A stretch of 64,000 nt of DNA. Source: an uncultured Gemmatimonadales bacterium (GTDB lineage: Bacteria; Gemmatimonadota; Gemmatimonadetes; Gemmatimonadales; GWC2-71-9). Position 1 is the stretch's first letter. Each line of letters opens with the position of its first letter. The stretch is from the NCBI GenBank assembly GCA_963697755.1, contig CAVOPE010000014.1, forward strand, positions 107,817 through 171,816, given 5' to 3'. Below the pieces are notes generated by a model. The model saw only the letters and a list, made by a program, of their open reading frames with translations. It was not told where the DNA came from and did not search any database. This document shows, in pieces, positions 2,435-36,580 of this stretch. Both the position numbers and the translations under genes were made by a program.

Positions 2435-2880
2435 CAGAGCGCCTCCAGGGAGACGACGACGTGCCGGAGCGACGCCAGGTCGATCCCCTCGGCAAACCGG
2501 TCGTGAGGCGGCTCGCGGTCGGAGCGCACGAGCTCCCACGTGTCGTCGCCGAGGGCACGCCGTGCAACCTCGGGACTTGCGTCGAGGTCGATCCCGCGGC
2601 GCGAACGGAGCAGCTCATACGCGATTCGGCGGAGTGTGGGGCGCAGGCGGAAGTGGAGGTCGAACGCCGTGGTCTGCCCGAGCGTAACCTCGCGCTCGAT
2701 CCGCTCGAGCTCGGGGACGCGCAGGGACGGGCGCGGGCGCCGGTTGAGAGCTGCATCCACGGGCGACGTCGTGCGCTGCGGCAGCGAGGCGCGGAGGCGT
2801 GCCAGCAGGTAGGCGAGGACGAATGCCGCGAGCAGGAGCGCGTAGACGCGCACGACGATCTCGGCCCGTCTCCCACGCAT
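2434..2880 (-). CDS. small membrane-anchored protein, first gene of the MoxR operon
   Basis: Within ORF 2434..2952(-). ATG at 2880 gives [29 protein letters not shown] (one TM helix) followed by a soluble domain. Its stop overlaps the MoxR start (ATGA). No family recognised. Confidence 0.55.
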
Positions 2881-3586
2881 CCTCGATCGCCATCTTGACG
2901 CCGCCCGGCTCCTGGTCGGGGAGGGCACCGTCGATCGAGTCGGTCCGGGCAATGATGACGATATTCACCCCGGTCGCCTCGGCTGCGGCCTTGATGGCCT
3001 TCAGCTTGGCCAGCCACTGCTGGCGGGTCACCAGCACCTTGTTCCGCTTCTGCTTGCCGACGTTGACGATGTGACCGCAGGTGCGGTTGGACGGGTCCTG
3101 GTTCTCCAGGTGGACACCGCCGGCCCCGACCCGGATCAGCTCGGTCGCCAGGGTGAACGTCTGGGTCGGTCCGCCGAAGCCCGCTTCCATATCCACGAAG
3201 GCCGGGGGTGCGTCGAGCAGGTCCTTCCCCTCGGTGTCGTACCAGCGGGTGTTGCGGGCGCCCTCGATGCCCTTCCGCATCTCCAGCACGAGCTCCACCA
3301 TCTGGTGCGATTGATAGATGCCGATGTCCGGGTACAGGCTCTTCGTGGCCGCGAGCTGCCAGCCGCTGCCGTACAACGTCTTGAACCCGAGGGTCGTCAT
3401 GATCGCCGAGGTGAAGGCGTCGTACGCCCCGGCGGTATGAAGGAAGGATTTCTTGGCTCGGGCTTCGTGCAAGAGCCGGCGGAGCTTGTCGGCCGGGACC
3501 TCGCTCTCCGGCGGAGCAAAGAGCCGGCCAACCGCCTCGGCCGGGTAGGACACCTTGGAGGACGAGGGTGGGGTCGCAGTCGCCAT
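2881..3586 (-). pseudogene. isocitrate lyase / PEP mutase family gene, 3'-truncated (about 235 codons of homology)
   Basis: ORF 2615..3586(-) starts after a GAAGGAGAGAG RBS-like stretch. Family motifs are FVDMEAGFGG, NRTCGHIVNVGKQKRNKVLV (ICL-type K-x-CGH signature region) and IIARTDS. Homology stops at about AIEDAWE, exactly where the next gene's ATG (2880) lies. The expected 100-150 C-terminal residues appear in no frame. Confidence 0.6.
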
Positions 3587-3607
3587 GGCTCTCTCCTTCA
3601 GATGGAT

Positions 3608-3637
3608 CGCGGCGCCCCCGTCGGGCGGGGCGCCGCG
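3608..3637. promoter_or_regulatory. perfect 11-bp GC hairpin (CGCGGCGCCCC / GGGGCGCCGCG, 8-nt loop) in the leader of the ICL-like gene
   Basis: Read directly from the sequence. It lies about 20 nt upstream (minus-strand sense) of the RBS/ATG at 3586, in the divergent intergenic region. Function unknown. Confidence 0.3.
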
Positions 3638-3674
3638 CGTCTTGGCCGTGCCGGAGGGCGTCGGCCAAAAGGTT

Positions 3675-3690
3675 TGTGAAACTATTCACA
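3675..3690. promoter_or_regulatory. TGTGA-N6-TCACA palindrome (CRP/FNR-family operator-like)
   Basis: tTGTGAaactatTCACAa is a perfect match to both half-sites of the classical CRP consensus core. It lies in an AT-richer patch of the 230-bp divergent region between the ICL-like gene and the first polysaccharide gene (ATG 3817). Confidence 0.45.
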
Positions 3691-3816
3691 ATATGGCAAG
3701 AGGTCGCCGCTTGCGCCAGACCCCCTAGTTTGGGGTGGCGTCCCGAACCGCGCAATTCCTCGCAGGCCCGGGTCCCGCTTAGATTTGGGCGACCCGAGCC
3801 CTGACCCCCGAGAGCC

Positions 3817-4878
3817 ATGTTCATCACCAAGCCGTTCGTCCGGGACCGGAAGATCCGGTTCGCCCTCGTCGGCTGCGGCCGCATCTCCACCAACCATTTC
3901 GACGCCCTCGACCGGCACAAGGACCGGGCGGAGCTCGTCGGCGTCTGCGACATCGACCTGGACAGCCTGTCCCGCGCCGAGGCGCGGACCGGGGCGCCGG
4001 GGTTCCGGTCGCTCGAGGCGATGCTGGCCGGCACCGAGGCCGACGTGGTTATCCTGGCCACGCCCAGCGGGCTCCACGCCGACCAGGCCATCCAGGTGGC
4101 CGCCGCGGGCCGGCACGTGATGACCGAGAAGCCGATGGCCACCCGCTGGCGGGACGGGAAGCGGATGGTCTACGCCTGCGACCAGGCCGGTGTCCATCTC
4201 TTCGTCGTCAAGCAGAACCGGCGGAACGCCACCCTGCAACTGCTCAAGCGGGCGGTCGAGAAGAAGCGCTTCGGCCGGATCTACATGGTCAACATCAACG
4301 TCTTCTGGGCCAGGCCGCAGTCGTACTACGACAGCGCCGCCTGGCGGGGGACGTGGGAATTCGACGGCGGCGCCTTCATGAACCAGGCCAGCCACTATGT
4401 CGACCTGCTGGACTGGCTGATCGGGCCGGTGGAGAGCGTGCAGGCCTACACGGCCACGCTGGCCCGCAACATCCAGGTGGAAGACACGGGCGTCGTGAGC
4501 ATCCGCTGGCGGACGGGCGCGCTCGGCAGCATGAATGTCACGATGCTGACTTACCCGAAGAACCTCGAGGGCTCGATCACGATCATCGGGGAGAAGGGCA
4601 CGGTCCGGATCGGCGGGGTGGCCGTCAACCAGATCGAGCAATGGTCGTTCGCGGAGCCGGATCCCGACGACGCGAGCGTGCAGCAGGCGAGCTACGATAC
4701 GACGTCGGTCTACGGCATCGGCCATCCGCTGTACTACGACAACGTCATCAAAGCGCTGCGAGGCGAGGAGCCCCCCGCCACCGACGGGCGCGAGGGGCTC
4801 CACTCGCTGGAGATCCTTATCGCCACTTACATCTCCGCGCGAGACGGGCGCCGCGTCGCGCTGCCGCTCGAGGTCTAA
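3817..4878 (+). CDS. Gfo/Idh/MocA-family NAD-dependent sugar oxidoreductase (WbpB-like)
   Basis: ORF 3817..4878. N-terminal Rossmann [16 protein letters not shown], then [30 protein letters not shown], and a C-terminal GFO_IDH_MocA_C-like half. First gene of the sugar cluster. Confidence 0.85.
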
Positions 4879-4898
4879 CGGTGGTCAACGGAAGCGCC

Positions 4899-5783
4899 GT
4901 GGGCCGCAAGGGGATCATCCTGGCCGGCGGCTCGGGCACGCGACTGCACCCGGTCACCCGCGCGATCTGCAAGCAGCTACTGCCGATCTACGACAAGCCC
5001 ATGATCTACTACCCCCTCAGCACGCTGATGCTGGGAGGGATGCGCGAGATCCTGGTCATCTCGACGCCGCAGGACCTGCCGGCGTTCGAGCGCCTGCTCG
5101 GCGACGGCTCCCAATGGGGACTGTCGCTCTGCTACATGGTGCAGCCTTCGCCCGACGGCCTGGCGCAGGCGTTCCTGCTCGGGCGGGAGTTTCTGGGGCG
5201 CGATCCGAGCTGCCTCGTGCTGGGGGACAATATCTTCTACGGGCAGGATCTGAGCGCGACGCTGCAGCGCGCGGCGGCGCGGCCGACGGGCGCCACGGTA
5301 TTCGGCTACCACGTGCACAATCCGTCGGCGTACGGTGTGGTCGAGTTCGACGCCGCCGGCAAAGTGATCGGGATCGAGGAGAAACCCGCCCGTCCGCGCT
5401 CGAACTACGTGGTGACCGGCCTCTACTTCTACGACGCCCACGTGGTGGACATCGCTGGCGAGATCCGTCCCTCGGCGAGAGGGGAGCTAGAGATCTCCGA
5501 CGTGAACGCGCGCTACCTCGCACTGGGCACCCTCGAGGTCGAGATCCTCCGGCGCGGCACCGCGTGGCTCGACACCGGCACGCACGAGTCACTCCTCCAG
5601 GCGGGCACCTTCATCCAGACGATCGAGGAGCGGCAGGGACTCAAGATCGCCTGCCCGGAGGAGATCGCGTATCGGATGGGGTATATCGACGCCGAGCAGG
5701 TCGCGCGGCTGGCGCAGCCGCTGGTGAAGACGACGTACGGGCAGTATCTCCTGCAGATGCTGCAGGACCCCCGCCGTCCGTGA
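4899..5783 (+). CDS. rmlA: glucose-1-phosphate thymidylyltransferase
   Basis: Within ORF 4353..5783. [51 protein letters not shown] plus the rest are textbook RmlA. In-frame GTG at 4899 (alternative 4881). The upstream part of the ORF overlaps the previous gene and is not coding. Confidence 0.95.
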
Positions 5784-6328
5784 TCGCCACGCCGGCTGCC
5801 ATTCCGGAGGTCCTGCTCCTGGAGCCGGTGGTGCACGGCGACCGGCGCGGCTTCTTCCTCGAGACCTGGCACGAGCCCCGGTACGTCGCGGCCGGCATTC
5901 CCGGACCGTTCGTCCAAGACAATCACAGCCGCTCGGTGGGCCACACGCTTCGAGGGCTGCACTACCAGGTGCGGCAGCCGCAGGGAAAGCTGGTGCGTGC
6001 GGCGGCGGGCGCCATCTTCGATGTGGCGGTGGATCTGCGGCGGTCGTCGCCGACGTTCGGGCGCTGGGTGGGTGCGGTGCTCAGCGACGAGAACCACCAC
6101 CAGCTCTGGATCCCGCCTGGCTTCGCCCACGGATTCTACGTCCTGAGCGCGCAGGCCGACGTCATGTACAAGTGCACCGTCCCCTACGCTGCGCAGCTCG
6201 ACCGCGCGCTCCGGTGGGACGATGCGGCGCTGGGAATCGCCTGGCCGCTGGCCGGCGCCGGCCCACCGCTGCTTTCGGCCAAGGACGCGGCGGCGCCTGG
6301 CCTGCAGGACATCGAGGCGTATCCGTGA
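5780..6328 (+). CDS. rmlC: dTDP-4-dehydrorhamnose 3,5-epimerase
   Basis: Within ORF 5114..6328. GTG 5780 overlaps the rmlA TGA (GTGA). Motifs [45 protein letters not shown]. Confidence 0.93.
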
Positions 6329-7209
6329 CGGCCACGCCTGCCAGCCGGGCGCTGATCACCGGTGGGGCGGGACAAGTAGGGTTGGCCCTGCAGGCCAAGG
6401 TTCCGAGCGGGTGGACCGTCGTCGCCTGCGGGGTGGACCAGCTCGACGTCACCCGGCCCGACCAGGTCCGCGAGGTTTTGCGCCGCGAGCGGCCGGCGGT
6501 CGTGATCCACACGGCCGCTTACACCGCGGTCGACGCGGCGGAGTTCGACGTGGCCACGGCCGAGTCGGTGAATGCCCGCGGCACGGCGCACGTGGCCGAG
6601 GCAGCGCGAGAAGTGGGCGCGCGGCTGCTGTACGTGTCGACCGATTTCGTGTTCGACGGCGCTAGCGGCCGGCCGTACGCTCCGGACGATCTGCCCCAGC
6701 CGCTCGGCGTCTACGGCCGGACCAAGCTCGCGGCCGAGGGCGAGGCGAGGCGAGCGCTGGGCGACCGGGCCGTCATCCTGCGCACGGCATGGGTCTACTC
6801 GCGGCACGGCCAGAACTTCGTCCGCACCATGCTCCGGCTCATGCAAGAGCGGGAAGAGGTCGGCGTCGTCGCCGACCAGATCGGCACGCCCACCTGGGCC
6901 GACTCGCTGGCGGACGCACTCTGGGCGGTGGCCATCCGGCCCGTGGCCGGCGTTCTGCACTGGACCGACGCGGGTGTGGCCAGCTGGTACGATTTCGCGG
7001 TGGCGATCCAGGAGGAGGCGGTCGCGGCCGGGCTGCTGCCGCGGGCGGTGCCGATCCGGCCGCTCCGCACCGGCGAGTATCCGGCGGCCGCGCCGCGCCC
7101 GCCCTACAGCGTCCTCGACAAGAGCACCACCTGGGCGCTGCTCGGCCGCACTCCGCCCCATTGGCGGGTCAATCTGCGACGCATGCTTCAGGAGCTCGCC
7201 CGTGGCTAA
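6325..7209 (+). CDS. rmlD: dTDP-4-dehydrorhamnose reductase
   Basis: Within ORF 6172..7209. GTG 6325 overlaps the rmlC TGA. Motifs LITGGAGQVG, VIHTAAYTAVDAAE, YVSTDFVFDG, YGRTKLAAE. Confidence 0.92.
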   Translation: MTATPASRALITGGAGQVGLALQAKVPSGWTVVACGVDQLDVTRPDQVREVLRRERPAVVIHTAAYTAVDAAEFDVATAESVNARGTAHVAEAAREVGARLLYVSTDFVFDGASGRPYAPDDLPQPLGVYGRTKLAAEGEARRALGDRAVILRTAWVYSRHGQNFVRTMLRLMQEREEVGVVADQIGTPTWADSLADALWAVAIRPVAGVLHWTDAGVASWYDFAVAIQEEAVAAGLLPRAVPIRPLRTGEYPAAAPRPPYSVLDKSTTWALLGRTPPHWRVNLRRMLQELARG

Positions 7210-7249
7210 CCTCCTCGTCACCGGCGGAGCCGGCTTCATCGGCGCGAAC
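7202..7249 (+). pseudogene. 16-codon N-terminal stub of a lost dTDP-glucose 4,6-dehydratase gene
   Basis: GTG at 7202 overlaps the rmlD stop (GTGGCTAA) and reads VANLLVTGGAGFIGAN, then unrelated LKPACCRALFEG-stop. The intact rmlB 150 nt downstream starts MRSLLVTGGAGFIGAN, with different (less GC-rich) synonymous positions. Confidence 0.7.
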
Positions 7250-7351
7250 TTGAAGCCCGCGTGCTGCAGGGCTTTATTTGAGGGCTAGGGTGCAATTCAA
7301 CTCCTCCTCGCTGCCAGCGAAGGACCGACGCGCGATCCATGCCTCACTGCC

Positions 7352-8461
7352 TTGCGTAGTCTCCTCGTGACCGGTGGTGCCGGGTTCATCGGCGCCAATT
7401 TCGTCCATTACTGGCTGGGCGCGCATCCTTCCGATCGCGTCCTCGTCCTCGACGCCCTGACCTACGCAGGAAATCTGTCGAGCCTCGAAACCGCCCGGTC
7501 GCAGCCGCAGTTTACGTTCGTGCGCGGCGACATCCGCGACGATGAGCTCACGGCGCGCCTGCTTAGGGAGCACGACGTGACTACCATCGTGCACTTCGCG
7601 GCCGAATCGCACGTGGATCGCTCGATCCACGGCCCCGACGCCTTCGTCGACACCAACATGGTGGGTACCCACGCGATGCTGAAAGCGGCGCGGCGCGTTT
7701 GGCTGGATGAGCGGAACGGCCCGCCCGAGGTTCGGTTCCATCACGTCTCAACGGACGAAGTGTATGGCTCCCTCGGCGCCGACGAGCCCGCGTTCCGCGA
7801 GGACACCGCCTACGCGCCCAATTCGCCTTACGCGGCGAGCAAGGCGGGCTCCGACCACCTGGTTCGGGCCTACCACCATACGTATGGGCTCCCGGTCACG
7901 ACGAGTAACTGCTCGAACAATTACGGTCCGTTCCAGTTTCCTGAAAAGCTGATCCCGTTCATGCTGGTAAACGCGCTCCTGGGGAAGCCGTTGCCGATCT
8001 ACGGCGACGGGCTCAACGTGCGTGACTGGCTCTACGTCGAGGATCACTGCCGGGCGGTGGAGCGTGTGCTGCTCGCGGGCCAGCTGGGCGAGACGTACAA
8101 TGTGGGCGGGCGCAATGAGTGGCCCAACATCGAGATCGTGCGTCTTCTCTGCCAGCTCGTCGATGAGGCGGTGGACGCCGATCCGAATCTTTCGGCGCGC
8201 TTCCCGAGCTGCCCCGCGTCGAGCGGCCGGGAGACGGCCTCGCTCATGACATTCGTGAAGGACCGTCCCGGCCACGATCGCCGCTACGCCATTGACGCCG
8301 ATCGTATCGAGCGCGAGCTCGATTTCACGCCGGCGGAGACCTTCGAGACGGGCATCCGGAAGACCCTCGCCTGGTATCTCGGGAACGAGCCTTGGTGGCG
8401 ACGCGTGATGGACGGCAGCTATCGCGCTTGGCTCGAGCGGCAGTACAGCGCTGCGCTCTGA
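7352..8461 (+). CDS. rmlB: dTDP-glucose 4,6-dehydratase
   Basis: ORF 7352..8461 (TTG start). Motifs LLVTGGAGFIGANF, DALTYAGN, HFAAESHVDRS, YAASKAGSDHLV, SNCSNNYGPFQFPEKLIP. Visibly lower GC than rmlACD. Confidence 0.95.
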   Translation: MRSLLVTGGAGFIGANFVHYWLGAHPSDRVLVLDALTYAGNLSSLETARSQPQFTFVRGDIRDDELTARLLREHDVTTIVHFAAESHVDRSIHGPDAFVDTNMVGTHAMLKAARRVWLDERNGPPEVRFHHVSTDEVYGSLGADEPAFREDTAYAPNSPYAASKAGSDHLVRAYHHTYGLPVTTSNCSNNYGPFQFPEKLIPFMLVNALLGKPLPIYGDGLNVRDWLYVEDHCRAVERVLLAGQLGETYNVGGRNEWPNIEIVRLLCQLVDEAVDADPNLSARFPSCPASSGRETASLMTFVKDRPGHDRRYAIDADRIERELDFTPAETFETGIRKTLAWYLGNEPWWRRVMDGSYRAWLERQYSAAL

Positions 8462-8464
8462 GCG

Positions 8465-9760
8465 ATGCTCCTCGGCCTCTCGCTCGGCGCGATCGCTGGA
8501 ATTGGCATCCTTGTCAACTTTGCGTACCAGTGGTACGTGCTGACGACGCTGGGACCGGGCCTGGCCACCGACGCGCTGTTCGCGGGGACGATCGTCCCGC
8601 AGCTGGTCTTGATCATCGCGAGCGGATCAATCAGCTACGTGCTGATTCCCCTGCTGGCGATCAAGGAGACGGAGGGCCGCGCACGGCTGGCCTGGACGTA
8701 TTTCCAGGTCATCGGTCTCACTTGTCTCGCGCTCGTGGCAGTCCTGATGCTCACTGCCGAATTCTGGGTACCGCTCACGGTGCCCGGGTTTCCGCCCGCC
8801 AACGCGGAATTGGCGGTACACCTGACCCGCATCCAGCTGCTGGCGACCGCCTTCACGGCGGTCACCGGGGTCGAGCTGGCGCTGCACCACGCCAAGAATC
8901 ATTTTCTGCGGGCGGAGAGTGCCGGCGTCGTGGCGTCCGTGGCAGGCCTCGGCTTCATCGTCTGGGGACTTCCCCGCATGGGCATAGAGGCCGGGGCCTG
9001 GGGCATCGTGATCCGGGCCATACTCCAGATGCTGCTTCTCGCGCCTGGGATGGGGGCGTATCGGGCTCCTCATTGGTCGGATCCCGGCCTCGCGCTTGGC
9101 ATTCGACGATCGGCGCCGCTCATCGGCGGCCAATTGTACTTCAAGAGCGACGCCATGTTCGATCGCTTTCTCGCGTCGCTGGCGCCGCCCGGCGCCTTGT
9201 CCCTCTATCACGTCTCCCAGCAGCTCTACGCGTCGGCCGCGATGGTCATGAACCGCGCGGTTGTGGCACCCGTAGTGCCAAGGCTGTCCCGGCTCGCGAG
9301 CGTGAACGACTGGCCGGAGTTCATCGCCCAGATCAACCGGCGACTGGTCGTGATGGTGGCTGTAACAGTCGCGATCTCCGTCGGCCTGGCGCTGCTCGGC
9401 CGGCCGGTTCTGGGTCTGATCTTCGGTCGAGGGGAGTTCACGGCGGACCGGGTGGCGCACCTCTGGTGGCTGCTGCTCCTCCTCTCGGGCGTGTGGGTGG
9501 GAGGACCGCTCGGTCAGATCCTGTCCACGTCCTTCTATGTCCAGGGTGACACGCGAACCCCGACTCGCGTCGGCATCGTTGGCTTCACCCTGGCCATCGG
9601 CCTCAAGCTGTTTGCCTTTCGGAGGTACGGGATCGAAGGGCTGGCCTTGGCCGCGAGTGCCTATTACGTGCTGAACGCGACAGCGTTGCTCATCCTCCTG
9701 CGTTGCAGGACTCGTCGGGTGCCGGGCTCGATGCCGCTCGAAGGGCTGGCCAGCCCGTGA
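8465..9760 (+). CDS. MurJ/MviN-family (MOP superfamily) polysaccharide flippase
   Basis: ORF 8465..9760, with about 12 hydrophobic segments. The MurJ-like central motif is RSAPLIGGQLYFKSDAMFDRFLASLAPPGALSLYHVSQQLYASAAMVMNRAVVAPVVPRLS. Position in a Wzy-type locus fits a Wzx role. Confidence 0.8.
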   Translation: MLLGLSLGAIAGIGILVNFAYQWYVLTTLGPGLATDALFAGTIVPQLVLIIASGSISYVLIPLLAIKETEGRARLAWTYFQVIGLTCLALVAVLMLTAEFWVPLTVPGFPPANAELAVHLTRIQLLATAFTAVTGVELALHHAKNHFLRAESAGVVASVAGLGFIVWGLPRMGIEAGAWGIVIRAILQMLLLAPGMGAYRAPHWSDPGLALGIRRSAPLIGGQLYFKSDAMFDRFLASLAPPGALSLYHVSQQLYASAAMVMNRAVVAPVVPRLSRLASVNDWPEFIAQINRRLVVMVAVTVAISVGLALLGRPVLGLIFGRGEFTADRVAHLWWLLLLLSGVWVGGPLGQILSTSFYVQGDTRTPTRVGIVGFTLAIGLKLFAFRRYGIEGLALAASAYYVLNATALLILLRCRTRRVPGSMPLEGLASP

Positions 9761-10704
9761 GCGCGCCCGTCGCCCTCGAGCGCGTCGGCTGCCCGCTCGG
9801 CTGCCCTAGCGACGACGAGCTCGTGATCACCGGCCGGGATCGGCTCCACGAGCTGCCGGGAGAATTCCGGGTGGTCCGCTGCCGGGGTTGCGGTCTCATG
9901 CGAACCGATCCTCGGCCAACGCTCGACGGGATCGACTTCTACTATCCCGCGGACTACCGGCCCTACCTCACGACGCGTGTTGGCACGACCCCAACCGCCA
10001 AGGTGCCCTCAAGCGGGCGAGTCCGCACCGCGATTCGGCGGCTGCTCAGGCCCGTGGCGCTTGAGCTGCCGCCGCTTCCGCCCGGCCGACTGCTCGAGAT
10101 TGGTTGCGGCTCGGGCGCCTTCTTGCACAGCATGGCCCAGAAGGGGTGGTCCGTCGATGGCATCGAGCGCTCTCCTGACGCCGGTGCCTCGGCGCAGGCA
10201 CTGGGCTACCCGGTGCACATCGGACCGCTTGAAACAGCCCCCGATCCTCCTGCTCCATACGATTTGGTCGTCGGCTGGATGGTGCTGGAACACCTGCACG
10301 AGCCGATCGCGACTCTGGAGAAGCTGGCCCGATGGAGCGCGACCGGGGCGTGGCTGGTGGCCTCGGTGCCCGATGCCGGCGCGCGGGAGTTCACCTGGTT
10401 CGGTGACGCTTGGTACGCGCTACACCTGCCGGGACACCTTTTTCACTATACGCCGCGCACATTAGGGCGAGTGCTGGAGCGTGGGGGATGGAAGCTCGAG
10501 CGCGTATACTGGCACGACAATCCGAACAATCTGCTGCTCAGCCTGCGCTATCTCTGGCTCGAGCGCGGGTGGTCCACCGGCGCCGACCTGCTGCAATCCG
10601 TCGCCGACGGGAAGCGGTTTCCCTGGGCGCGACTCTTCCTTGGCAAGCTCCTGGGCCGTCTGCGGTCCAGTGGGAGGATGACCATTTGGGCGCGACGGAT
10701 CTAG
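9757..10704 (+). CDS. class I SAM-dependent methyltransferase with N-terminal Cys4 zinc-ribbon
   Basis: Within ORF 9703..10704. GTG 9757 overlaps the flippase TGA. CPLGC...CRGCG zinc ribbon, then LLEIGCGSGAF (motif I) and YDLVVGWMVLEHL. Confidence 0.8.
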   Translation: MSAPVALERVGCPLGCPSDDELVITGRDRLHELPGEFRVVRCRGCGLMRTDPRPTLDGIDFYYPADYRPYLTTRVGTTPTAKVPSSGRVRTAIRRLLRPVALELPPLPPGRLLEIGCGSGAFLHSMAQKGWSVDGIERSPDAGASAQALGYPVHIGPLETAPDPPAPYDLVVGWMVLEHLHEPIATLEKLARWSATGAWLVASVPDAGAREFTWFGDAWYALHLPGHLFHYTPRTLGRVLERGGWKLERVYWHDNPNNLLLSLRYLWLERGWSTGADLLQSVADGKRFPWARLFLGKLLGRLRSSGRMTIWARRI

Positions 10705-10757
10705 AACGCTCAGCCGTAGCACCTGACGCCCGGCCCGGCGCGCCGTCCCGGCCGTTC

Positions 10758-11804
10758 TTGGTCGGCTGGCGCCCGACCTGCAGTGACCCCAAGGTCGCTA
10801 GTGTCCGGATCCGCTGCCTCAACCCGCTGGGCGAGTTGCATCGGCAGAACTACCCCGTCGAACTGTACCAGGCCGCTCGGCGAAGCTCGTATGCGGCAGT
10901 GATCTTCTCCAAGGTTTACGACGAAGCCACCCAGGCCGAAGCGGACAAACTTCGGTCCTCTGGGGCAAGGGTCGTGCTGGATCTGTGCGACAATCACTTC
11001 CTTGATGCCTCGGGAGCGGAAGTTGTCCGCAAGGCGTCGATCCGGCTACGCCGGATGGTCGAACTGGCCGACGAGTTCGTGGCGTCCACCGATGCGATGG
11101 CAGAGGTGCTGCGGCAGGAGGCCGGCGGGCAGAGGCCGGTGACAGTAATCGGCGATGCGGTGGAGACGAGCATCGACAGCGTCCGGAGTGCCCCATGGCA
11201 CGAATGGCTCGCACGGCGACGCCTGCGGGCGCTCACCGAGCGACTGGCGGTCCAATCGGTCTCGCGGCTGGTCTGGTTCGGCTCGCATGGGGGGCCATCG
11301 GGCGACCATGGCATGGCCGATCTGGAGACGATCCGCCCACTGCTGGAATCGCTCCATCAGGAGCGCCCGCTGAGTCTCACGGTCATCAGCAACTCGGCAG
11401 AGAAGTTCGACCGGCTCATTCGGCCGTGGCGCTTGCCCACCGAGTACCTCGAGTGGAGTCCGATCACTTTTCTGTCGGCGCTCCGCTTGCACGAGATCGC
11501 GGTTATCCCGATTCGGCAGACCCCCTTCACTCGCTGTAAGACCAACAATCGCCTGGTCACGGCCCTGGCCGCCGGGCTCGCGGTGGTGGCGAGCTCGATT
11601 CCGAGCTATCTGCCGTTTGCCTCGACCTGTACGCTCGACGACTGGTCCGGAGGGCTTCGACGATACATCCTCGACCCGGAGTCCCGGCGCCGCGCGGTGG
11701 CGGCGGGGCAGGCCCTGGTGCAGCGGGAGTGGACCCTCCCGGTGATCGCGGATCACTGGCGGCACTATTTTGACGGCTTTCGCGAGAGGGCACCGCAGCG
11801 CTGA
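10758..11804 (+). CDS. putative glycosyltransferase (GT-B-like, family not assigned)
   Basis: Within ORF 10410..11804, whose first third overlaps the previous gene. Coding begins about VRIRCLNP. The C-terminal half (LVWFGSHGG..., TRCKTNNRLVTALAAGLAVVASSIPSY) looks like a GT-B nucleotide-sugar binding half. TTG 10758 is the nearest in-frame start; start uncertain. Confidence 0.5.
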   Translation: MVGWRPTCSDPKVASVRIRCLNPLGELHRQNYPVELYQAARRSSYAAVIFSKVYDEATQAEADKLRSSGARVVLDLCDNHFLDASGAEVVRKASIRLRRMVELADEFVASTDAMAEVLRQEAGGQRPVTVIGDAVETSIDSVRSAPWHEWLARRRLRALTERLAVQSVSRLVWFGSHGGPSGDHGMADLETIRPLLESLHQERPLSLTVISNSAEKFDRLIRPWRLPTEYLEWSPITFLSALRLHEIAVIPIRQTPFTRCKTNNRLVTALAAGLAVVASSIPSYLPFASTCTLDDWSGGLRRYILDPESRRRAVAAGQALVQREWTLPVIADHWRHYFDGFRERAPQR

Positions 11805-12044
11805 TTCCGCCAGTGCGGGCATGATGGAGCGCCGCGTGGAGCGCTGTTCGAGTGGTTCAGACGGCAGCCCGGTCCTGAGGGCGACGAGAGCTCCCATGGG
11901 GGCCGGCTCGCTGAAGGACGCCGCGGATGTCCGGGAGCGACGCACTCGCTACTTCAGCACGAGGGACAAGCGATCGTGCCAGGTGCAGCCGCCCAGCTTC
12001 TGATTCGAAGTCGGTCACGAGCGTTGTATGGTTTTCTCGAGCGG

Positions 12045-12782
12045 ATGTCATTCGCCCGACGGGCCCTGGCGTCTCTCGGAGCCAACCGGCGGTTCCGGCA
12101 GACTCATCCCCGAGTTGCCGTCCCCCCCTTGCGACTGCTTTGGGACGCGCAGTCCTACACGGACTACCAGCGGTACTGGGACTCGGGGCGGACGAGCGCC
12201 GAATACTACTGGGACCTGATCCGGACCAGACTTCCTGCTTCCCCTGGCGAGCCGATCCGCGTGTGCGAATGGGGGTGCGGACCTGCTCGAATAATCCGAC
12301 ACTTCCCTGACCTCTGCGTCGGCTACCCGGCGACGATCCTTGCCACCGACTACAACGCCGCGTCGATCCGATGGTGCAAGGCCCACATTGCCGGTGTGAG
12401 CTTCCATCACAACGATCTGGCGCCTCCTCTCCCGTTCGAACGCGGGCAGCTCGACGCGCTCTACTGCCGCTCCGTGTTCACCCATCTGTCCGAAGAAATG
12501 CACTACCGCTGGATCGAGGAGCTCGGACGGGTCGTTCGGGCCGGAGGGTTGATTGTTTTGTCGACTCAGGGCGCCGCTCATGCGAGCCGTCTTCTGCCCG
12601 AGGAGCGCGAACAATATGATCGAGGCGAGCTGGTCGTGCGACAACTCGCGCAGGAGGGTAAGCTGTTTTTCGCTGCATTTCACAATCCGGCCTTTGTCCG
12701 GGGGAGGCTCCTGGCCGGCATGCGCGTGGAGGAGCATCAGGAAGGTCGCAATACGCAGGATGTCTGGGTGGTACGTCGTTAG
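12045..12782 (+). CDS. class I SAM-dependent methyltransferase
   Basis: Within ORF 11976..12782. ATG 12045. Motif I VCEWGCGPARI, then LDALYCRSVFTHLSEE and VVRAGGLIVLS. Confidence 0.7.
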   Translation: MSFARRALASLGANRRFRQTHPRVAVPPLRLLWDAQSYTDYQRYWDSGRTSAEYYWDLIRTRLPASPGEPIRVCEWGCGPARIIRHFPDLCVGYPATILATDYNAASIRWCKAHIAGVSFHHNDLAPPLPFERGQLDALYCRSVFTHLSEEMHYRWIEELGRVVRAGGLIVLSTQGAAHASRLLPEEREQYDRGELVVRQLAQEGKLFFAAFHNPAFVRGRLLAGMRVEEHQEGRNTQDVWVVRR

Positions 12783-12947
12783 CCTGAGGCTGCTTGTCAA
12801 TTGCGGCACACTCGGAGGACGTGTGTCGCATTCCGGGTCGCTTGGAAGCCCATTTTGCCCCTAGCGGGGGCCGAATCTCACCGTAGCATCCAAAGCATGC
12901 CAGGTCCCCTGGAAGGCATCTCCGGCTGTGACGCAGGAGCTACGCGC

Positions 12948-12971
12948 GAAGTCACTATAGAAGTCACTATA
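12948..12971. repeat. perfect tandem duplication of a 12-mer (GAAGTCACTATA x2)
   Basis: Read directly: gcGAAGTCACTATAGAAGTCACTATAacgg, 42 nt upstream of the GTG (13013) of the TolB-like gene, in an AT-richer intergenic region. Confidence 0.9.
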
Positions 12972-13012
12972 ACGGACCTTGCCGCTGGTCGAGGCGAGGA
13001 AGAGGCATCGGC

Positions 13013-14098
13013 GTGGGATCACTGCCATTGAGGCTCGAGGAGCTTGTTAAGACTCGCATTGCGGAGGTCGCCGCCACCCTCCTCGGTATCCTCGCGTTGA
13101 CCGCTTGCGGCGCTGAGACAGGTCCGCCCGAGCCCCTCCCCAAACCCGACATCCTCGACAACCAGATCGTGTTCGCGTCCGATCGCGGCGGACACAAAGA
13201 GATCTACGTCACGAATCCCGACGGATCCGGCGTCATCAAGCTGTTGGACAGCCCCACCGGCGACCTCAATCCGGTGCCGTCGCCGGACGGGACCCGAGTC
13301 GCCTTCTTCCGTCATGTCGACACCGTCATCCTCCTGCAGATCATGAACACCGACGGTAGCAACCTGATCAGCACCTACTTTCGGACAGACGACGCCACCT
13401 GGTCGCCCGACGGCTCCCGGCTGGCGATGCTGGTAACCGATGCTCGCGGGATTTGGTTCACACCCAAAGTCGTCGATCGGACGGGCTCCGTGGTGTCCGC
13501 GCTCGATCTCTCTGCCTGCGGCGGCACCAGTCCGTCCTGGTCACCCGAGGGGTCCCGCTTGGCATACGTGCTTTGCCCCTCTGGCGCGGTTTACGTGCGT
13601 GACGTCGCCGCCGGCACCACAACCACGCCTGTGCCCGATTCCGAGATTGACGATGACGCCTATCTTCCCGCCTGGTCGCCTGACGGGGCGGCGATCGCCT
13701 TCGCAATCCGCGTCGACGACCCGGACCGGACTGGCATTTTCGTGGTCGGGCCGGACGGAAGTGGCCTCACCAGACTGGCGCCCGACTCCGCGGTCCGGAC
13801 GCTGCGATGGTCCCCAGACGGCTCCAAACTGGCGTTCGTCTCGGGTGCCGGCGGGGACAACGAGGTGTATGTGATAAACCCCGACGGGGCAGGACGGTTG
13901 AACCTCACGCAGAATCCCGCTGACGACAGTCACGTGACCTGGGCCCCGAGCGGCACCCGACTGGCATTCCAGAGCGACCGCACTGGCAATCGCGAGATCT
14001 TCGAGATGGATGTCGACGGCACGCACGTGGCCAACCTCACCAATAGCCCGGCGGACGATGCCGAGCTGGCCTGGAGTTCGGCCAGGGTCGCCCCATAG
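13013..14098 (+). CDS. TolB-like beta-propeller lipoprotein (PD40/WD40-like repeats)
   Basis: ORF 13013..14098. Lipobox-like LALTAC. Repeated SPDG/WSPDG blades (VPSPDGTRVAF, TWSPDGSRLAM, SWSPEGSRLAY, AWSPDGAAIAF, RWSPDGSKLAF, TWAPSGTRLAF) with IYV..PDGSG linkers. Confidence 0.8.
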   Translation: MGSLPLRLEELVKTRIAEVAATLLGILALTACGAETGPPEPLPKPDILDNQIVFASDRGGHKEIYVTNPDGSGVIKLLDSPTGDLNPVPSPDGTRVAFFRHVDTVILLQIMNTDGSNLISTYFRTDDATWSPDGSRLAMLVTDARGIWFTPKVVDRTGSVVSALDLSACGGTSPSWSPEGSRLAYVLCPSGAVYVRDVAAGTTTTPVPDSEIDDDAYLPAWSPDGAAIAFAIRVDDPDRTGIFVVGPDGSGLTRLAPDSAVRTLRWSPDGSKLAFVSGAGGDNEVYVINPDGAGRLNLTQNPADDSHVTWAPSGTRLAFQSDRTGNREIFEMDVDGTHVANLTNSPADDAELAWSSARVAP

Positions 14099-14104
14099 CG
14101 GAGC

Positions 14105-15745
14105 ATGAACGCGGACGGTCCTGGCGCTGCCGCGGGCGCTGGCGCGCAGGACCGGACCAAGGTTGTTTTCAGCGCGTCGCGGAGGCCGGCGACACCACTG
14201 ACCAGGGGGCATGTGCAACATTTTTTCGACTGGGCCAGGGGAGCCGTTCGGAGCGAGGAACCCTGGCTGATTCTCGGTAAAGGACCGAGCTTTTCGCAGC
14301 GCGATCTTTACGACCTCTCGGGCTACCGACTGTTGAGCCTGAACCACGTCGTGCGCGAGCTGCCGGTCGCGCTGGCGCACATGATCGATCTGGATGTCGC
14401 GGACGCGTGCGCCGAGGCGCTGGGCGAGAACGCCGAGTTCTTGGTGATGCCGTGGTATCCGCATGTCAGGAACCGCGCTGGCAGCGAGAGCCTGGCGGAG
14501 CTGGTCCCGAAGTTCCCCGGCCTCCGGCGTCTGGAGGCCGAGGGCCGGCTCCTATGGTATGACCTGAGCACGTCACCGGTCCGCCACGGCCCGGGCCCGG
14601 TTGTGCAGGCGACCTATTTTAGCGCCGAGGCGGCGCTGAGCCTCCTGGCTTTGGCCGGGGCCCGGCGGGTCCGCTCGCTCGGCGTGGACGGGGGTAACGC
14701 ATACAGCCAAGCGTTCGACGACCTCAAGGACAAAACGCTGCTGGCCAACGGCCGGCCGAACTTCAACCTGCAGTTCAAGGGACTGGCCAGGACCATCATG
14801 AGCACAGGTGTGGACTACGCTCCGCTCGACGTCGAGAGCCCGATTCGAGTGTACGTCGGCAGCCAGGAAGCCCAGATGCTGCCGGTGAAAGTGCTCGAAT
14901 ACTCGATCCGCAAGCACGCCAGCATGACGGTCGAGGTCTTTCCGCTGCATCAGGCCCACGTCGACTTCTCGATGCCCGCCGCGGTCGAGAACCGTCCGCG
15001 CACGCCGTTCTCATTCCAGCGGTTCTACATCCCGCAGCTCGCCGGATTTCGCGGGCGGGCGATCTACGTCGACTCGGACATGCAGGTCTTTCAGGACATC
15101 CGGAAGCTGTGGACGCTGCCGTTCGAGGGAGCCGACCTCCTGGCCGCGCGCGAAGCGGGCGAGAGCGGCCGTAAACCGCAGTTCAGCGTCATGCTGCTCG
15201 ATTGCGCGGCCCTCCGGTGGGATCTGAACGACATCGTAGCGCGGCTGGATCGCGGCGAGCTGACCTACGAGACCCTCATGTACGAGATGAAGGTCGCTCG
15301 GAGCATCCGGGCGGGCATCGACCCGACCTGGAACTCGCTTGAGCGCTATGAGGATGGCCGCACGGCCCTCCTTCATTACACCGACATGATGACACAGCCC
15401 TGGATCTCCCAGAACAATCCCCTGGGGTATCTCTGGGTGCGTGACCTGATCGGGGCGGTCGATGCGGGCGCAATCACCCGCGCCTTCGTCGAGGAGCACG
15501 TGCGCGAGGGCAACGTCCGCCCCACGCTGCTCTATCAGCTGGACCACCGGGTGGAAGAGACGGCACTCCTGCCCAAGGTCGCCCGAGAGCTCGACGACGC
15601 GTTCGTCCCTCCCTACCGGAAGATGGGGGCGCATGCCGGCACCCGACTGGGGCGCCTGGGACGCGTGCGCGCCATCCTGCGGCACGTCTACCAGCGGAGC
15701 CCACTCTTCCGCATCGAGCGAAAGCTGCGAGCGCCGGACAATTGA
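14105..15745 (+). CDS. two-domain protein: N-terminal DUF115/MptE-like domain fused to a C-terminal GT8 glycosyltransferase
   Basis: ORF 14105..15745. The C-terminal half has a GT8 look (IRVYVGSQEAQMLPVKVLEYSI, FSFQRFYIPQLAGFRGRAIYVDSDMQVFQDIRKLW with a DxD, and LHYTDMMTQPW). The N-terminal about 230 aa has LILGKGPSF ... HMIDLD ... SLGVDGGNAY, a pattern I associate with DUF115/Maf-type domains. That assignment is from memory only. Confidence 0.7.
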   Translation: MNADGPGAAAGAGAQDRTKVVFSASRRPATPLTRGHVQHFFDWARGAVRSEEPWLILGKGPSFSQRDLYDLSGYRLLSLNHVVRELPVALAHMIDLDVADACAEALGENAEFLVMPWYPHVRNRAGSESLAELVPKFPGLRRLEAEGRLLWYDLSTSPVRHGPGPVVQATYFSAEAALSLLALAGARRVRSLGVDGGNAYSQAFDDLKDKTLLANGRPNFNLQFKGLARTIMSTGVDYAPLDVESPIRVYVGSQEAQMLPVKVLEYSIRKHASMTVEVFPLHQAHVDFSMPAAVENRPRTPFSFQRFYIPQLAGFRGRAIYVDSDMQVFQDIRKLWTLPFEGADLLAAREAGESGRKPQFSVMLLDCAALRWDLNDIVARLDRGELTYETLMYEMKVARSIRAGIDPTWNSLERYEDGRTALLHYTDMMTQPWISQNNPLGYLWVRDLIGAVDAGAITRAFVEEHVREGNVRPTLLYQLDHRVEETALLPKVARELDDAFVPPYRKMGAHAGTRLGRLGRVRAILRHVYQRSPLFRIERKLRAPDN

Positions 15746-16797
15746 TCCCGCCGCCGCGCAAGCGCCGCCGATGGCCGGCGGAGTGGACCCTAACTGTCGG
15801 CCTGATGGCTTGTCTCGGGACGCATCCGTATCAGGCTCCCCGGATCAGCCGGAACCCAAGCCTTGGCGAAGGGATGGTAGTCGACGGCGGCGGCTTCCGC
15901 GCCGCGCGTGGGTCTTGGCTGGAGCTGCGAGCGCCCGCGGGCGCGAACGGCGGCCAGGTGACCATCAAGTCCAACCTCTCCGCGGGCTGCTCGCTCTGGT
16001 CGTGGGTGTGGAACGACTTCGAGTTCGTCAACGTGCACGACTACGGCCGCCAGATCCAGACGGCCTTCGTGAGCGACCGCGGCGCGGCCCACGAAGCCAA
16101 CCCGACCGAGGCCGGCAGCCGCTTCTCGGCTTGGCCCGGCTCGCACAAGGGCTCGCCATGCGTGCGGGCCGCCAACGTGCTGCCCGCGACGCAGGTGACC
16201 TCTGCTTCGCCCTTCGAATACGAGCCGACGCGGTGGGGTGGCGGCTACCGGCGGCCGTTCCTCTGGAAGGACGTTCGCATAGGCAAGGAGATCACCCTCG
16301 ACTACCTCGGGCTCGGCCCGGTGGCCCGCTACGCCAGCCTCGTGACCGTGCCGGCGGACGTGCCGAGCTCGGGTGTGGAGATTCCCTCCGTCTACCTGCA
16401 TGCCAGCCTCCGCCGGTTCTACGGCTACGACGCCGCCACGCGGACGTTGTCGCTCCAGGATCCGGCGACCGTCGAAGGCGGGACGCTGCCGCCGTCGGGC
16501 TACGGCGGAGTCATCGCATCCACTCCGGACGGGTCGCGGGCGTTCGGCCAGTACGGCGTCGTGGACTCGCTCGGCGGCTCGGTGACTCCCGCTGCTGGCG
16601 GATTCAGCTACTTCCTGTTCCCGGACCCGACCGACACCCTCGGACCCGCGGCCAACGCGACGGCCAAGATCCGCGCGCTCCACGGCGGGCTCGTGCGCGG
16701 GGAAAATCGGATGACCACCTACCTGATGAGCGGGACCCTCGCCGAGGTCACGGCGCTGATGGACAGCCTGTACGCGCACCGGGAAGTGGCGCGCTGA
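15742..16797 (+). CDS. hypothetical protein (possible lipoprotein), no family recognised
   Basis: ORF 15742..16797. TTG 15742 overlaps the preceding TGA (TTGA). N-terminus RKRRRWPAEWTLTVGLMACLG is signal/lipobox-like. Alternative ATG at 15874. High GC3 throughout supports coding. Confidence 0.55.
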   Translation: MIPPPRKRRRWPAEWTLTVGLMACLGTHPYQAPRISRNPSLGEGMVVDGGGFRAARGSWLELRAPAGANGGQVTIKSNLSAGCSLWSWVWNDFEFVNVHDYGRQIQTAFVSDRGAAHEANPTEAGSRFSAWPGSHKGSPCVRAANVLPATQVTSASPFEYEPTRWGGGYRRPFLWKDVRIGKEITLDYLGLGPVARYASLVTVPADVPSSGVEIPSVYLHASLRRFYGYDAATRTLSLQDPATVEGGTLPPSGYGGVIASTPDGSRAFGQYGVVDSLGGSVTPAAGGFSYFLFPDPTDTLGPAANATAKIRALHGGLVRGENRMTTYLMSGTLAEVTALMDSLYAHREVAR

Positions 16798-16798
16798 G

Positions 16799-18106
16799 GT
16801 GACCGCGGCGCCCGCGCAGGCCGGCATTCTTCGCCTGAGGTGGTGGCTCTTTCTCCTCCCCGCCTGCTTCCTGGTGGAGGTGATTCTCGGCGGACCGCTG
16901 GGGATCTACGGCGGCATGCCCGTCCGCTTCATCCTGTTCGGCGCCTGCGGCGTCGAGCTCACTCTCGGGCTCGGCATCCGGGGTCGGATCACCGGCGCCC
17001 ACCTGGTGGCCCTGGCGAGCGTCACCGGCTTCCTCCTCGTCACCGCACTCTGGGTCGTGGTCGTGCCGGTGCTCACCCGCGGGCGATTCGTCTACGCCAT
17101 CGGCGAGGCGCGCTCGTTTCTAGTCTTGATCCTGGTGGTGCTCCTGCTCGCGCTCACGCCCGCCAGCCAGCTCGGCGTGCTCGTGAGCTACCTGCAGCGG
17201 ATCGTGGTGTGGTCCTCCGTTCTGCTCGCGGTGTTTCAGATCGCGATCTGGCTGGTCGGGACGCTGCTGCCCCAGCTCAAATGGGTCATCGGGCCCGTGC
17301 TCTCCGGTGCGTTCGGCGGCGCATCCGACTTCATCTACGTAGGGCCCATGCCCGACGGCTTCTTCCGGGTGTTCTGGATCTCGACGCTGTGGGTCCTGGT
17401 CAGCGTGTTCTGGCTCCCGCTGGTTGTGCCACCCGGGCCGCGCCGCACCGCGCTCTTCGCCATCCTGCTGTTCGGGCTGTTCGTCTCGTACTCCCGAGGG
17501 ATCTGGCTCGGGCTCGTCGCGGGGTGGGTCGTGGCCTATTTCACGGGACTCGACCGGCGGCACATCGTGCGCGGCCTGGTGCGCGCCAGCGTGGCCGCCG
17601 GCCTGCTGCTGACGCTGCTGCTCGGGATGCTGGCCGCCACGGGGCAGTTGAACCGCAGCACCGAGCGGCTCACGTCGACCGTCTCGCCCGATGACCCGAG
17701 CGTGGGGGTGCGCGTGGAGCAGGGACGGTACCTCGTGGATCTCTGGCTCGAGCACCCGTTCATCGGGAACGGATACGGCGCCTACTCGGCGCACTACACC
17801 CGGTCCACCGAGGCCCCGTTCAGCTACGAGCATATGTCCTACGCCTTCCTCGCCAAGCTCGGCCTGCTGGGGCTCGCGGCCAGCGGTGCGTTCGTGCTGT
17901 TCTGGGTCGGCACCGCGTGGCGGGCGCGCCGGACCGCGCCCGAGTCGGCGTCCGCCTTCCTCGGCGGGGCGAGCGCGCTGCTGCTGGCCTCGATGACCAA
18001 CCCGCTGATCGTCAACCTGGTGGGGATGAGCATCCTCGGCTGCCTGCTGCTGCAGTGGGCCAGCTTCGCCGCTCCCGCCCGCCCGCCGGCTCCGCATGAC
18101 GTCTGA
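16799..18106 (+). CDS. O-antigen polymerase/ligase family membrane protein (Wzy-like)
   Basis: ORF 16799..18106, with about 10-12 TM segments. Wzy_C-type motif LFVSYSRGIWLGLVAGWVVAYF followed by a periplasmic loop with GNGYGAY. Confidence 0.8.
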   Translation: MTAAPAQAGILRLRWWLFLLPACFLVEVILGGPLGIYGGMPVRFILFGACGVELTLGLGIRGRITGAHLVALASVTGFLLVTALWVVVVPVLTRGRFVYAIGEARSFLVLILVVLLLALTPASQLGVLVSYLQRIVVWSSVLLAVFQIAIWLVGTLLPQLKWVIGPVLSGAFGGASDFIYVGPMPDGFFRVFWISTLWVLVSVFWLPLVVPPGPRRTALFAILLFGLFVSYSRGIWLGLVAGWVVAYFTGLDRRHIVRGLVRASVAAGLLLTLLLGMLAATGQLNRSTERLTSTVSPDDPSVGVRVEQGRYLVDLWLEHPFIGNGYGAYSAHYTRSTEAPFSYEHMSYAFLAKLGLLGLAASGAFVLFWVGTAWRARRTAPESASAFLGGASALLLASMTNPLIVNLVGMSILGCLLLQWASFAAPARPPAPHDV

Positions 18107-36368: not shown

Positions 36369-36534
36369 GTCGCAATCTCACGCAGTGGCCGGGCCGTCGC
36401 CAGCGCAGCGGAGGCTCGCCGAAGGCTGTGAAGGGCGATGTTCAGAGGAGGGTGATGCGGAGCCGGCTCTCTGAGGCGTCGGCGGCTGGGGATCCTGTCG
36501 CTCGAACGCGGAGTGTAGATTCTGGTGGCTTGTC

Positions 36535-36580
36535 GGGCCCTTAGCTCAGGTGGTTAGAGCAGCGGACTCATAACCGTTGG
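36535..36580 (+). pseudogene. 5' fragment (46 nt) of a tRNA with CAT anticodon
   Basis: GGGCCCTTAGCTCAGGTGGTTAGAGCAGCGGACTCATAACCGTTGG matches the first about 47 nt of the intact tRNA at 37611. Differences are 2 D-loop substitutions (GT vs TC), a missing T after the anticodon loop and one C/T change. No T-arm or 3' acceptor follows (cgccggtgagcg...). Confidence 0.75.

Follow-up and report, generated by a model that had tools for sequence, protein, structure and literature searches.

We examined the boundary between the genes rmlD and rmlB of the rml sugar-pathway locus in a 64,000-nucleotide stretch of contig CAVOPE010000014.1 from an uncultured Gemmatimonadales bacterium (assembly GCA_963697755.1; this whole stretch is called the window, and positions are counted from its first letter). 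The 5' end of an earlier rmlB gene, which we will call the stub, persists there directly downstream of rmlD and is followed by a complete rmlB of different ancestry. The stub is cut at an exact breakpoint, the trinucleotide CTT at 7249-7251, where both the ancestry and the composition of the DNA change. We consider it fairly probable that the block downstream of codon 17 of the old rmlB was imported into a locus of the type defined below as type a, and that the stub is the scar of this event. The term foreign here denotes another Gemmatimonadales lineage and not a distant taxon.

The relatives used for comparison are Gemmatimonadales metagenome-assembled genomes (MAGs) or metagenome contigs, numbered L001-L172. 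When species-representative genomes were searched with RmlD, Gemmatimonadales MAGs were the best matches (61-71% identity), and no match closer than 71% was found among Joint Genome Institute (JGI) metagenome contigs searched with the same protein; closer relatives were obtained only via a protein-database search and contig look-ups. Of these, L166, a 694-kb contig from the European Nucleotide Archive (ENA), is 99.7% identical to the window over 2870-18461, and L167 is a conspecific strain with about 4% substitutions. Gene calls of rmlD are shortened or fragmented in L164 and L166, as are several in L167 (rmlA, the methyltransferase gene MT1 and others). Indel errors of long-read assembly are the probable cause in L166 and L167, and given these broken calls protein-level comparisons with L164, L166 and L167 need care.

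Three layouts of the rmlD/rmlB boundary can be distinguished. In type a (L169, L170, L171, L168, L002, L004, L007, L082 and L083), the start of an intact rmlB overlaps the rmlD stop as (G/A)TGGCTA(A/G), giving a protein that begins V/M-A-N/S-LLVTGG. Type b, represented by L009, has the same overlap of 8 nucleotides (nt), spelled ATGCGTAG. In type c (L162, L163, L164, L165 and L003), rmlD carries a short C-terminal extension and ends within CTTGA, a spacer of about 100-130 nt follows, and rmlB starts at TTGCGTAG. An 8-nt start/stop overlap (NTGNNTAR) was present in 62 of the 119 collected loci with rmlB just downstream of rmlD, in several phyla including Gemmatimonadota and Proteobacteria; being the commonest arrangement among these loci, it is probably the ancestral state. 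This coupling geometry is strikingly well conserved across loci L002-L161.

A first-pass annotation, made by a model from the letters of the window and a list of their open reading frames (ORFs), had described rmlA, rmlC and rmlD as translationally coupled and had noticed a fourth coupled start leading into an RmlB N-terminus. Both observations are borne out. The rmlA stop (5783) overlaps the rmlC start GTG 5780 and the rmlC stop (6328) overlaps the rmlD start GTG 6325, each time as GTGA, and GTG 7202 overlaps the rmlD stop as GTGGCTAA. From GTG 7202 runs a 28-codon ORF reading VANLLVTGGAGFIGAN and then the unrelated LKPACCRALFEG, with its stop at TAG 7286-7288. Over its 50 nt (7202-7251), the stub shares 92% of its bases with the beginning of intact rmlB in L168, L170 and L171, and 47 bases with that of L169 (92-94% identity to intact genes in all), and these intact genes overlap the rmlD stop exactly where the stub does. 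Since relatives hold an intact rmlB at the same position, the stub was identified as a gene remnant; on this comparison it appears to be a non-functional piece of an earlier rmlB left as a recombination scar. The annotation had allowed that relatives might carry the same stub as a conserved upstream ORF, but L169, L170/L171, L168 and L002 hold a full-length rmlB there (in L169 as far as the contig, the nearest of type a, extends; it ends 108 nt into the gene). No other fragment of a type-a rmlB was detected in the 64 kb (tblastn with E up to 10, blastn with word size 7), in agreement with the claim that the rest of the resident gene is gone. The stub and the complete rmlB lie in the same frame with their starts 150 nt apart and a single in-frame stop, TAG 7286-7288, between them. 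Over codons 4-16 they differ at 6 of 39 bases, all of them synonymous third positions, and T-ending codons number none in the stub against three in the complete gene, which had rightly been described as less GC-biased in its synonymous codons.

Alignments with relatives from both sides place the breakpoint to the base. The two nearest of these relatives are represented by contig k141_4151595 of ENA ERZ27257771 for L169 and by JGI contig Ga0497421_0033452 for L162. Among type-a loci, L169, the closest, aligns with window positions 5989-7251 (92.8% nucleotide identity), L170 with 4570-7251 (85.7%), L171 with 5792-7251 (85.6%), L168 with 2851-7251 (83.9%) and L002 with 2851-7251 (81.5%). All five alignments end exactly at 7251, matching the abrupt loss of homology noticed earlier, and type-a similarity resumes only at about 7357, with 74-80% identity. 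L162, the closest type-c relative, aligns from exactly 7249 to 9319 (86.8% nucleotide identity). As the type-a match ends at 7251 and the type-c match starts at 7249, the crossover must lie in the CTT microhomology, at codon 17 of the old rmlB, where the annotation had put the cut. With a slash marking the join, the sequences read GCGAACTT/CGTCCA in L169, GCGAACTT/GAAGCCC in the window and GCCGGCTT/GAGGCCC in L162. The TGA at 7251-7253 is the stop codon of rmlD of the other, type-c lineage. The annotation had proposed a foreign block beginning with its own rmlB; this rmlB is of type-c ancestry, but the type-c sequence begins at 7249, with the rmlD stop and the spacer ahead of rmlB. To judge from these sequences, the join appears to be illegitimate, out of register and microhomology-mediated rather than a homologous crossover in register.

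That the two sides differ in ancestry is also seen in the encoded proteins, for which conflicting phylogenies had been anticipated. As for RmlD, amino acid identity to type a is 93% (L169), 86% (L170/L171), 81% (L168) and 71% (L002), and to type c 68% (L164/L165) and 67% (L003). As for RmlB, the values are 75% to type-a L168 and L002, and 90%, 86% and 82% to type-c L162, L163 and L164/L165, respectively. In neighbour-joining trees, RmlD of the window grouped with L169 (200/200 bootstraps) inside the L168-L171 clade (200/200), and RmlB grouped with L162 (192/200) inside the L162-L165 clade (200/200). Nucleotide trees gave the conflicting rmlD and rmlB splits at 299/300 each. RmlC grouped with L170/L171 in 173/200 bootstraps. 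The downstream genes agree with RmlB, identity to L162/L164 being 82-87% for the flippase and 84% for MT1; together with the gene for GTx, a protein that has no Pfam match, both are syntenic with type-c L164, where synteny reaches 11.87 kb, and with type-b L009. Toward the junction, identity to other lineages drops: it is about 85% in rmlA, 77% in rmlC and 67-73% in rmlD.

Divergence between the window and L167 is uneven: substitutions amount to 5.7% in the gene of the phosphoenolpyruvate (PEP)-mutase/isocitrate-lyase family, 4.5% in the gfo-like gene, 3.6% in rmlA, 1.1% in rmlC, 1.7% in rmlD, 2.0% in the stub and spacer, 12.0% in rmlB, 2.4% in the flippase, 1.4% in MT1 and 7.5% in GTx. This indicates that segments of the locus do move as patches. 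The rmlB divergence is concentrated at about 7640-8440, which is a separate recombination patch with a source outside the sampled lineages. On these sequence comparisons the whole locus appears mosaic, and trees of 'rml operon' genes from such MAGs will inherit this mosaicism.

The compositional step coincides with the same point. The annotation had estimated a GC content of 52-65% from here to about 15.7 kb; the dip is real but milder, with 0.62-0.67 in one-kb windows over 7-15.5 kb vs 0.69-0.73 after 15.5 kb, and the total GC of rmlA and the gfo-like gene is only 0.67-0.68. The spacer (7252-7351), which had been called AT-richer, has a GC of 0.62 vs 0.695 for 3817-7251. At third codon positions (GC3), the left flank shows 0.94 (gfo-like), 0.90 (rmlA), 0.87 (rmlC) and 0.89 (rmlD), the block 0.82 (rmlB), 0.82 (flippase), 0.79 (MT1), 0.80 (GTx), 0.72 (methyltransferase MT2), 0.79 (PD40 protein) and 0.84 (GT8-like gene), and the right flank 0.90 (gene 15874-16797), 0.93 (Wzy_C) and 0.87 (GT2). 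We scanned 4,863 third positions between 3.8 and 19.2 kb with a two-breakpoint likelihood model, using 200 block permutations as the null. The best breaks were found at about 7140 and 14335, with GC3 of 0.794 inside and 0.899 outside; twice the gain in log-likelihood (2ΔlnL) was 106.5, compared with a permutation mean of 20 and maximum of 47.5, so that the non-uniform composition expected by the annotation is confirmed. On the left, the break is sharp and located at the stub. On the right, the likelihood is flat from about 14.3 kb to the last scored position (about 15.0 kb), and in 80-codon bins the GT8-like gene has an intermediate GC3 of about 0.86, with about 0.90 reached only after 15.75 kb. 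Judged by composition, the block ends on the right somewhere between about 14.2 and 15.75 kb. In L164, L162, L009 and (for MT1) L172, homologues of its genes have GC3 of 0.84-0.92, so that a low GC3 is no inherent property of rmlB, the flippase, MT1 or GTx.

The genes for MT2 and the PD40 protein (11.9-14.1 kb) form the lowest-GC part of the locus (GC 0.62-0.65, GC3 0.72-0.79). L172 (2004-5298) has two extra small genes between its MT2 and PD40 homologues, and in L009 both genes are missing, with the GT8-like gene present twice instead. Homologues of the GT8-like gene are present in L003, L009 and L172. The locus is thus modular beyond the stub event.

Which side moved can be approached from composition and from the flanks. 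Composition points to the right-hand block, with rmlB, the flippase, the methyltransferases, the glycosyltransferase and the PD40 protein, as the import, since this block stands out against GC3 values of about 0.90 on either side. The annotation had likewise taken this block as incoming, a direction which composition favours but leaves unproven and on which phylogeny is undecided. The non-coding region at the left edge of the locus has an identity of 0.77 to L168 and 0.74 to L002 (both type a) vs 0.64 to type-c L164. The block is common to all three conspecific assemblies over the length that each covers, which reaches 18.5 kb in L166 and GTx at 11.8 kb in L167.

Several points weigh against an import of the right-hand block. 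The locus being mosaic throughout, phylogeny does not decide the direction. Identity of the gfo-like gene and rmlA is about 85% whichever lineage is compared, and as this is near synonymous saturation at a GC3 of about 0.9, they carry little signal; the rmlA nucleotide tree does not join the window with type-a L168 (280/300 against), and the flank from the PEP-mutase gene to gfo groups with L168 in only 184/300 bootstraps. Every sampled donor has a GC3 above that of the block. The MT2 and PD40 homologues in L172 also have low GC3 (0.77-0.81), from which it follows that this part of the trough is older or gene-specific. The microhomology of 3 nt is short and could be a coincidence. Finally, alignment with relatives, which the annotation had proposed for finding the right-hand junction, mapped the left one to the base and the right one in none of them; the type-a genes found downstream of rmlB in L002, L168, L007, L082 and L004 were sought in the window, and only a distant match at 23.3-23.8 kb was found.

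The exchange might also have run in reverse, with a type-a patch (rmlC or rmlD plus 16 rmlB codons) entering a type-c genome, anchored on the left in conserved rmlA/rmlC and joined illegitimately at the resident rmlD stop. We regard this as possible but unlikely. The window is collinear with type-c L164 from 2851 to 11866, its RmlA is 93% identical to L164 vs 88% to L168, the rmlA nucleotide tree groups away from L168, and strong type-a affinity is confined to rmlC and rmlD. Compared with L167, moreover, the segment from rmlC to MT1 has diverged by 1-2.4% (rmlB, with 12%, excepted) vs 3.6-5.7% from the PEP-mutase gene to rmlA, and homology-facilitated illegitimate recombination would find an ideal anchor in such highly conserved sequence on the left. 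However, it is the right block that has the odd composition (GC3 0.79), lower than in every sampled homologue of its genes, whereas rmlD plus stub, with 0.89, match the genome and the flanks. The intergenic identities given above (0.77 to L168, 0.64 to L164) also argue against a type-c recipient, the PEP-mutase is slightly closer to L168 (94% of amino acids vs 92% for L164), and the window has diverged from L170 evenly, by about 15%, between the 3' end of the gfo-like gene and the stub. For these reasons we prefer the import of the right-hand block.

The spacer itself has a history in type-c loci. It aligns with the spacers of L162, L163, L164, L165 and L003, with CTTGA, GGGCTTTATT, GCGAAGGA, CGATCCATG and TTGCGTAG in common. 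Scans of 6900-7700 for Rfam families, sigma-70 promoters and intrinsic terminators gave no match, and the consensus fold of seven spacers was weak (-6.2 kcal/mol, covariation term about 0), leaving a structured RNA unsupported. A mini-ORF of 6-9 codons ends at the TAG of TTGCGTAG in five of six type-c lineages (the window, L162, L164, L165 and L003; in L162 with a GTG start), and L163 has a GAGGAG motif instead of the mini-ORF. By ending there, the mini-ORF recreates the 8-nt start/stop geometry of rmlD-rmlB coupling seen in other genomes. By its spelling, the TTGCGTAG start of type-c rmlB appears to retain the TAG of a former type-b ATGCGTAG overlap and would represent an older scar; the mini-ORF may descend from the 3' end of an older rmlD or may serve as a reinitiation leader. 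One could go further and regard the rmlD/rmlB boundary as a recurrent breakpoint carrying nested scars of serial exchanges, in which the type-c spacer has become functional, although we find this rather improbable. If it were true, the mini-ORF would be a selected termination-reinitiation leader for a weak TTG start that lacks a Shine-Dalgarno sequence, and would restore the coupling lost when rmlB became separated from rmlD.

It is very improbable that the 28-codon ORF is a functional leader or upstream ORF regulating rmlB. Its start is still intact and coupled to rmlD, and both substitutions between the window and L167 in the first 16 codons are synonymous, but two substitutions are too few to show constraint. 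The ORF is absent from all type-c relatives with the same spacer, type-a relatives carry the full gene in its place, and it ends 63 nt upstream of the complete rmlB start. In L166, a 1-nt insertion, which shifts the frame, and one substitution fall in the tail of the ORF (7252-7288), and the tail is therefore not conserved as coding sequence. A conserved upstream ORF or leader peptide was rejected, as there is no conservation independent of the history of the flanking genes, and in annotations the ORF should be labelled as an rmlB remnant and not as a gene.

Two explanations without any exchange between lineages in the cell are hardly credible. A chimeric assembly of two co-occurring strains might be suspected in a metagenome-derived contig that also has a synteny break at 2869/2870; however, the 3 nt shared at the join are far below any assembler k-mer, and a chimera at the stub was rejected because three independent assemblies share the junction (the window, L166, where it is identical, and the diverged strain L167), with L001, a 1-kb Logan contig with four synonymous differences, agreeing up to its end inside the stub. 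A local tandem duplication of the rmlB 5' end followed by divergence would account for the same 13-codon motif occurring twice, 150 nt apart and in the same frame, but it was rejected since the two copies match different, separately sampled lineages (the stub 92-94% identical to type a, the second copy and spacer 87% to type-c L162), the spacer occurs without a stub in L162-L165 and L003, and the RmlD and RmlB trees are incongruent.

From the above, the following history can be proposed for an import of the right-hand block. The ancestral order would have been gfo-rmlA-rmlC-rmlD-rmlB, with the rmlB start overlapping the rmlD stop as GTGGCTAA. A related lineage would have donated a segment consisting of an rmlD stop, a spacer of about 100 nt, TTGCGTAG-rmlB, the flippase, methyltransferases and glycosyltransferase, replacing everything downstream of codon 17 of the resident rmlB. 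At the left end, an illegitimate join at CTT would have fused codon 16/17 of the resident rmlB to the last bases of the donor rmlD; at the right end, homologous recombination in shared genes near 14.2-15.7 kb probably closed the exchange. The remainder of the resident rmlB would have been lost, with the imported gene supplying the dehydratase. Ribosomes finishing rmlD may still start at GTG 7202, yielding only a 28-residue peptide of no expected function, and expression of rmlB would follow the type-c pattern, with a TTG start behind the spacer. As the block carries a flippase, two methyltransferases, GTx and a PD40 protein, the swap probably altered the polysaccharide made.

The features of the locus are collected in Table 1. 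Motifs of the GxxGxxG nucleotide-binding and YxxxK catalytic type define the 4,6-dehydratase family. In the complete RmlB, TGGAGFIG is found at residues 7-14 and YAASK within ...NSPYAASKAGSDHL...; the protein matches PF16363 at 7.7e-87 (residues 5-338) and PF01370 at 1.1e-62, and has thousands of homologues at E<1e-100, many of them named dTDP-glucose 4,6-dehydratase in the source. Judged by these matches, the gene encodes a bona fide dTDP-glucose 4,6-dehydratase homologue. The public gene call starts later, at GTG 7367 (364 amino acids; P0001/P0295), and an exact-protein look-up of RmlB with the TTG start gave no match. In L164/L165, the rmlB gene calls run into the spacer, giving 393 amino acids. 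The block, with its MurJ-family flippase, two methyltransferases and GT8-like gene, is flanked by conserved sugar-pathway genes, namely rmlACD to the left, as would be expected for the replacement of an O-antigen- or capsule-type cassette in a serotype switch; the Wzy_C and GT2 genes lie just outside the low-GC3 block.

Table 1. Features of the rml locus in the window, with coordinates (nt) and strand
Feature	Coordinates	Strand	Remarks
rmlA, glucose-1-phosphate thymidylyltransferase	4881..5783	+	Translation; PF00483 on identical L166 gene; 88-93% amino acid identity to relatives
rmlC, dTDP-4-dehydrorhamnose 3,5-epimerase	5780..6328	+	PF00908 on identical L166 gene
rmlD, dTDP-4-dehydrorhamnose reductase, 'coupled' lineage (type a)	6325..7209	+	Stop TAA 7207-7209
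Stub, remnant of earlier rmlB	7202..7251	+	GTG start, 16 codons and first 2 nt of codon 17
Crossover point CTT	7249..7251	+	Common to both parental types: AACTT/CGTCC (a), GGCTT/GAGG (c)
rmlD-rmlB spacer of type c ('uncoupled' lineage)	7249..7351	+	Includes relic rmlD stop TGA 7251-7253
Tail of stub ORF, ..KPACCRALFEG and stop	7252..7288	+	Spacer DNA read out of context
Mini-ORF, MPHCLA and stop, six codons	7339..7359	+	TAG within TTGCGTAG
Complete rmlB, dTDP-glucose 4,6-dehydratase, type-c ancestry	7352..8461	+	TTG start, 369 amino acids, begins MRSLLVTGGAGFIGANFVHYWL...
MurJ-family flippase	8465-9760	+	Pfam
Methyltransferase MT1	9757-10704	+	Pfam
GTx, protein without Pfam match	10686-11804	+	Conserved together with flippase and methyltransferases
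Methyltransferase MT2	12045-12782	+	Pfam
PD40 beta-propeller protein	13013-14098	+	Pfam
GT8-like gene	14213..15745	+	Intermediate GC3; right-hand boundary of block at its 5' or 3' end

Two further regions of the window were recorded. Synteny with every relative, including the 99.7%-identical L166, ends at 2850-2870. The minus-strand gene of the PEP-mutase/isocitrate-lyase family is identical to that of L166 for its first 239 or so residues (3586 to 2870) and beyond 2870 runs into unrelated sequence of 75% GC with MoxR-like AAA and DUF58 genes; in relatives, the gene continues (376-380 amino acids) and HflX precedes. The break at 2869/2870 reflects either a genuine rearrangement in the strain or a chimera in the assembly of the source contig. 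Elsewhere, a sharp GC trough of 0.56 at 36400-37700 contains a 300-codon, class-I methyltransferase-like ORF (36577-37479) immediately upstream of a tRNA-Met gene (37611-37684), and this region may be a small island beside the tRNA gene.

In comparison with translationally coupled rmlD-rmlB pairs, the stub keeps the 8-nt overlap GTGGCTAA, but the coupled start leads into no gene. It is a TTG 150 nt further downstream that opens the functional rmlB, with only a six-codon mini-ORF ahead of it that ends at the old overlap position.

Homology-facilitated illegitimate recombination, reportedly treated by de Vries and Wackernagel and by Prudhomme et al. in 2002, is a second point of comparison, and a microhomology of 3 nt lies at the low end of the range reported for it. 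A pattern with one anchor would match this process: at one end, a very short microhomology (CTT) carries an out-of-register join, but, unlike in the described cases, the homologous anchor at the other end in the window is an inferred one. The process has been described (PMC3240628) and was invoked for the displacement of type VI secretion system (T6SS) effectors in Vibrio cholerae (PMC5361080). As in T6SS and Rhs loci, where orphan pieces are left by successive displacements, a fragment of the displaced gene is stranded at the junction.

The nearest parallel is provided by the O-antigen (rfb) clusters of Salmonella enterica, which have recombination junctions inside rml genes and gene remnants at junctions (Reeves and colleagues, PMC3715488). 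In both cases, rml genes flank a variable centre of the wzx/wzy/glycosyltransferase kind, junctions between different ancestries fall in or beside rml genes, remnants of displaced genes persist, divergence of the shared genes rises toward the junction and the central block is lower in GC. Unlike in Salmonella, the host here is an uncultured Gemmatimonadales bacterium known from sequence alone, the gene order is rmlACDB as against rmlBDAC, what remains is itself the 5' part of an rml gene and lies directly beside its functional replacement, and the junction is without an insertion sequence (IS) or H-repeat element. In a limited literature search, nothing was found on polysaccharide-locus recombination in Gemmatimonadota, an abundant and almost uncultured soil phylum. 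The window is a new instance, in another phylum and with an unusually precise breakpoint, of a known kind of scar, and not a new element, mechanism or function. It offers a base-pair-resolved example of surface-polysaccharide cassette exchange in Gemmatimonadales, in which the enteric O-antigen pattern recurs, with rml genes as the recombination border, divergence rising toward the junction and remnants left at it.

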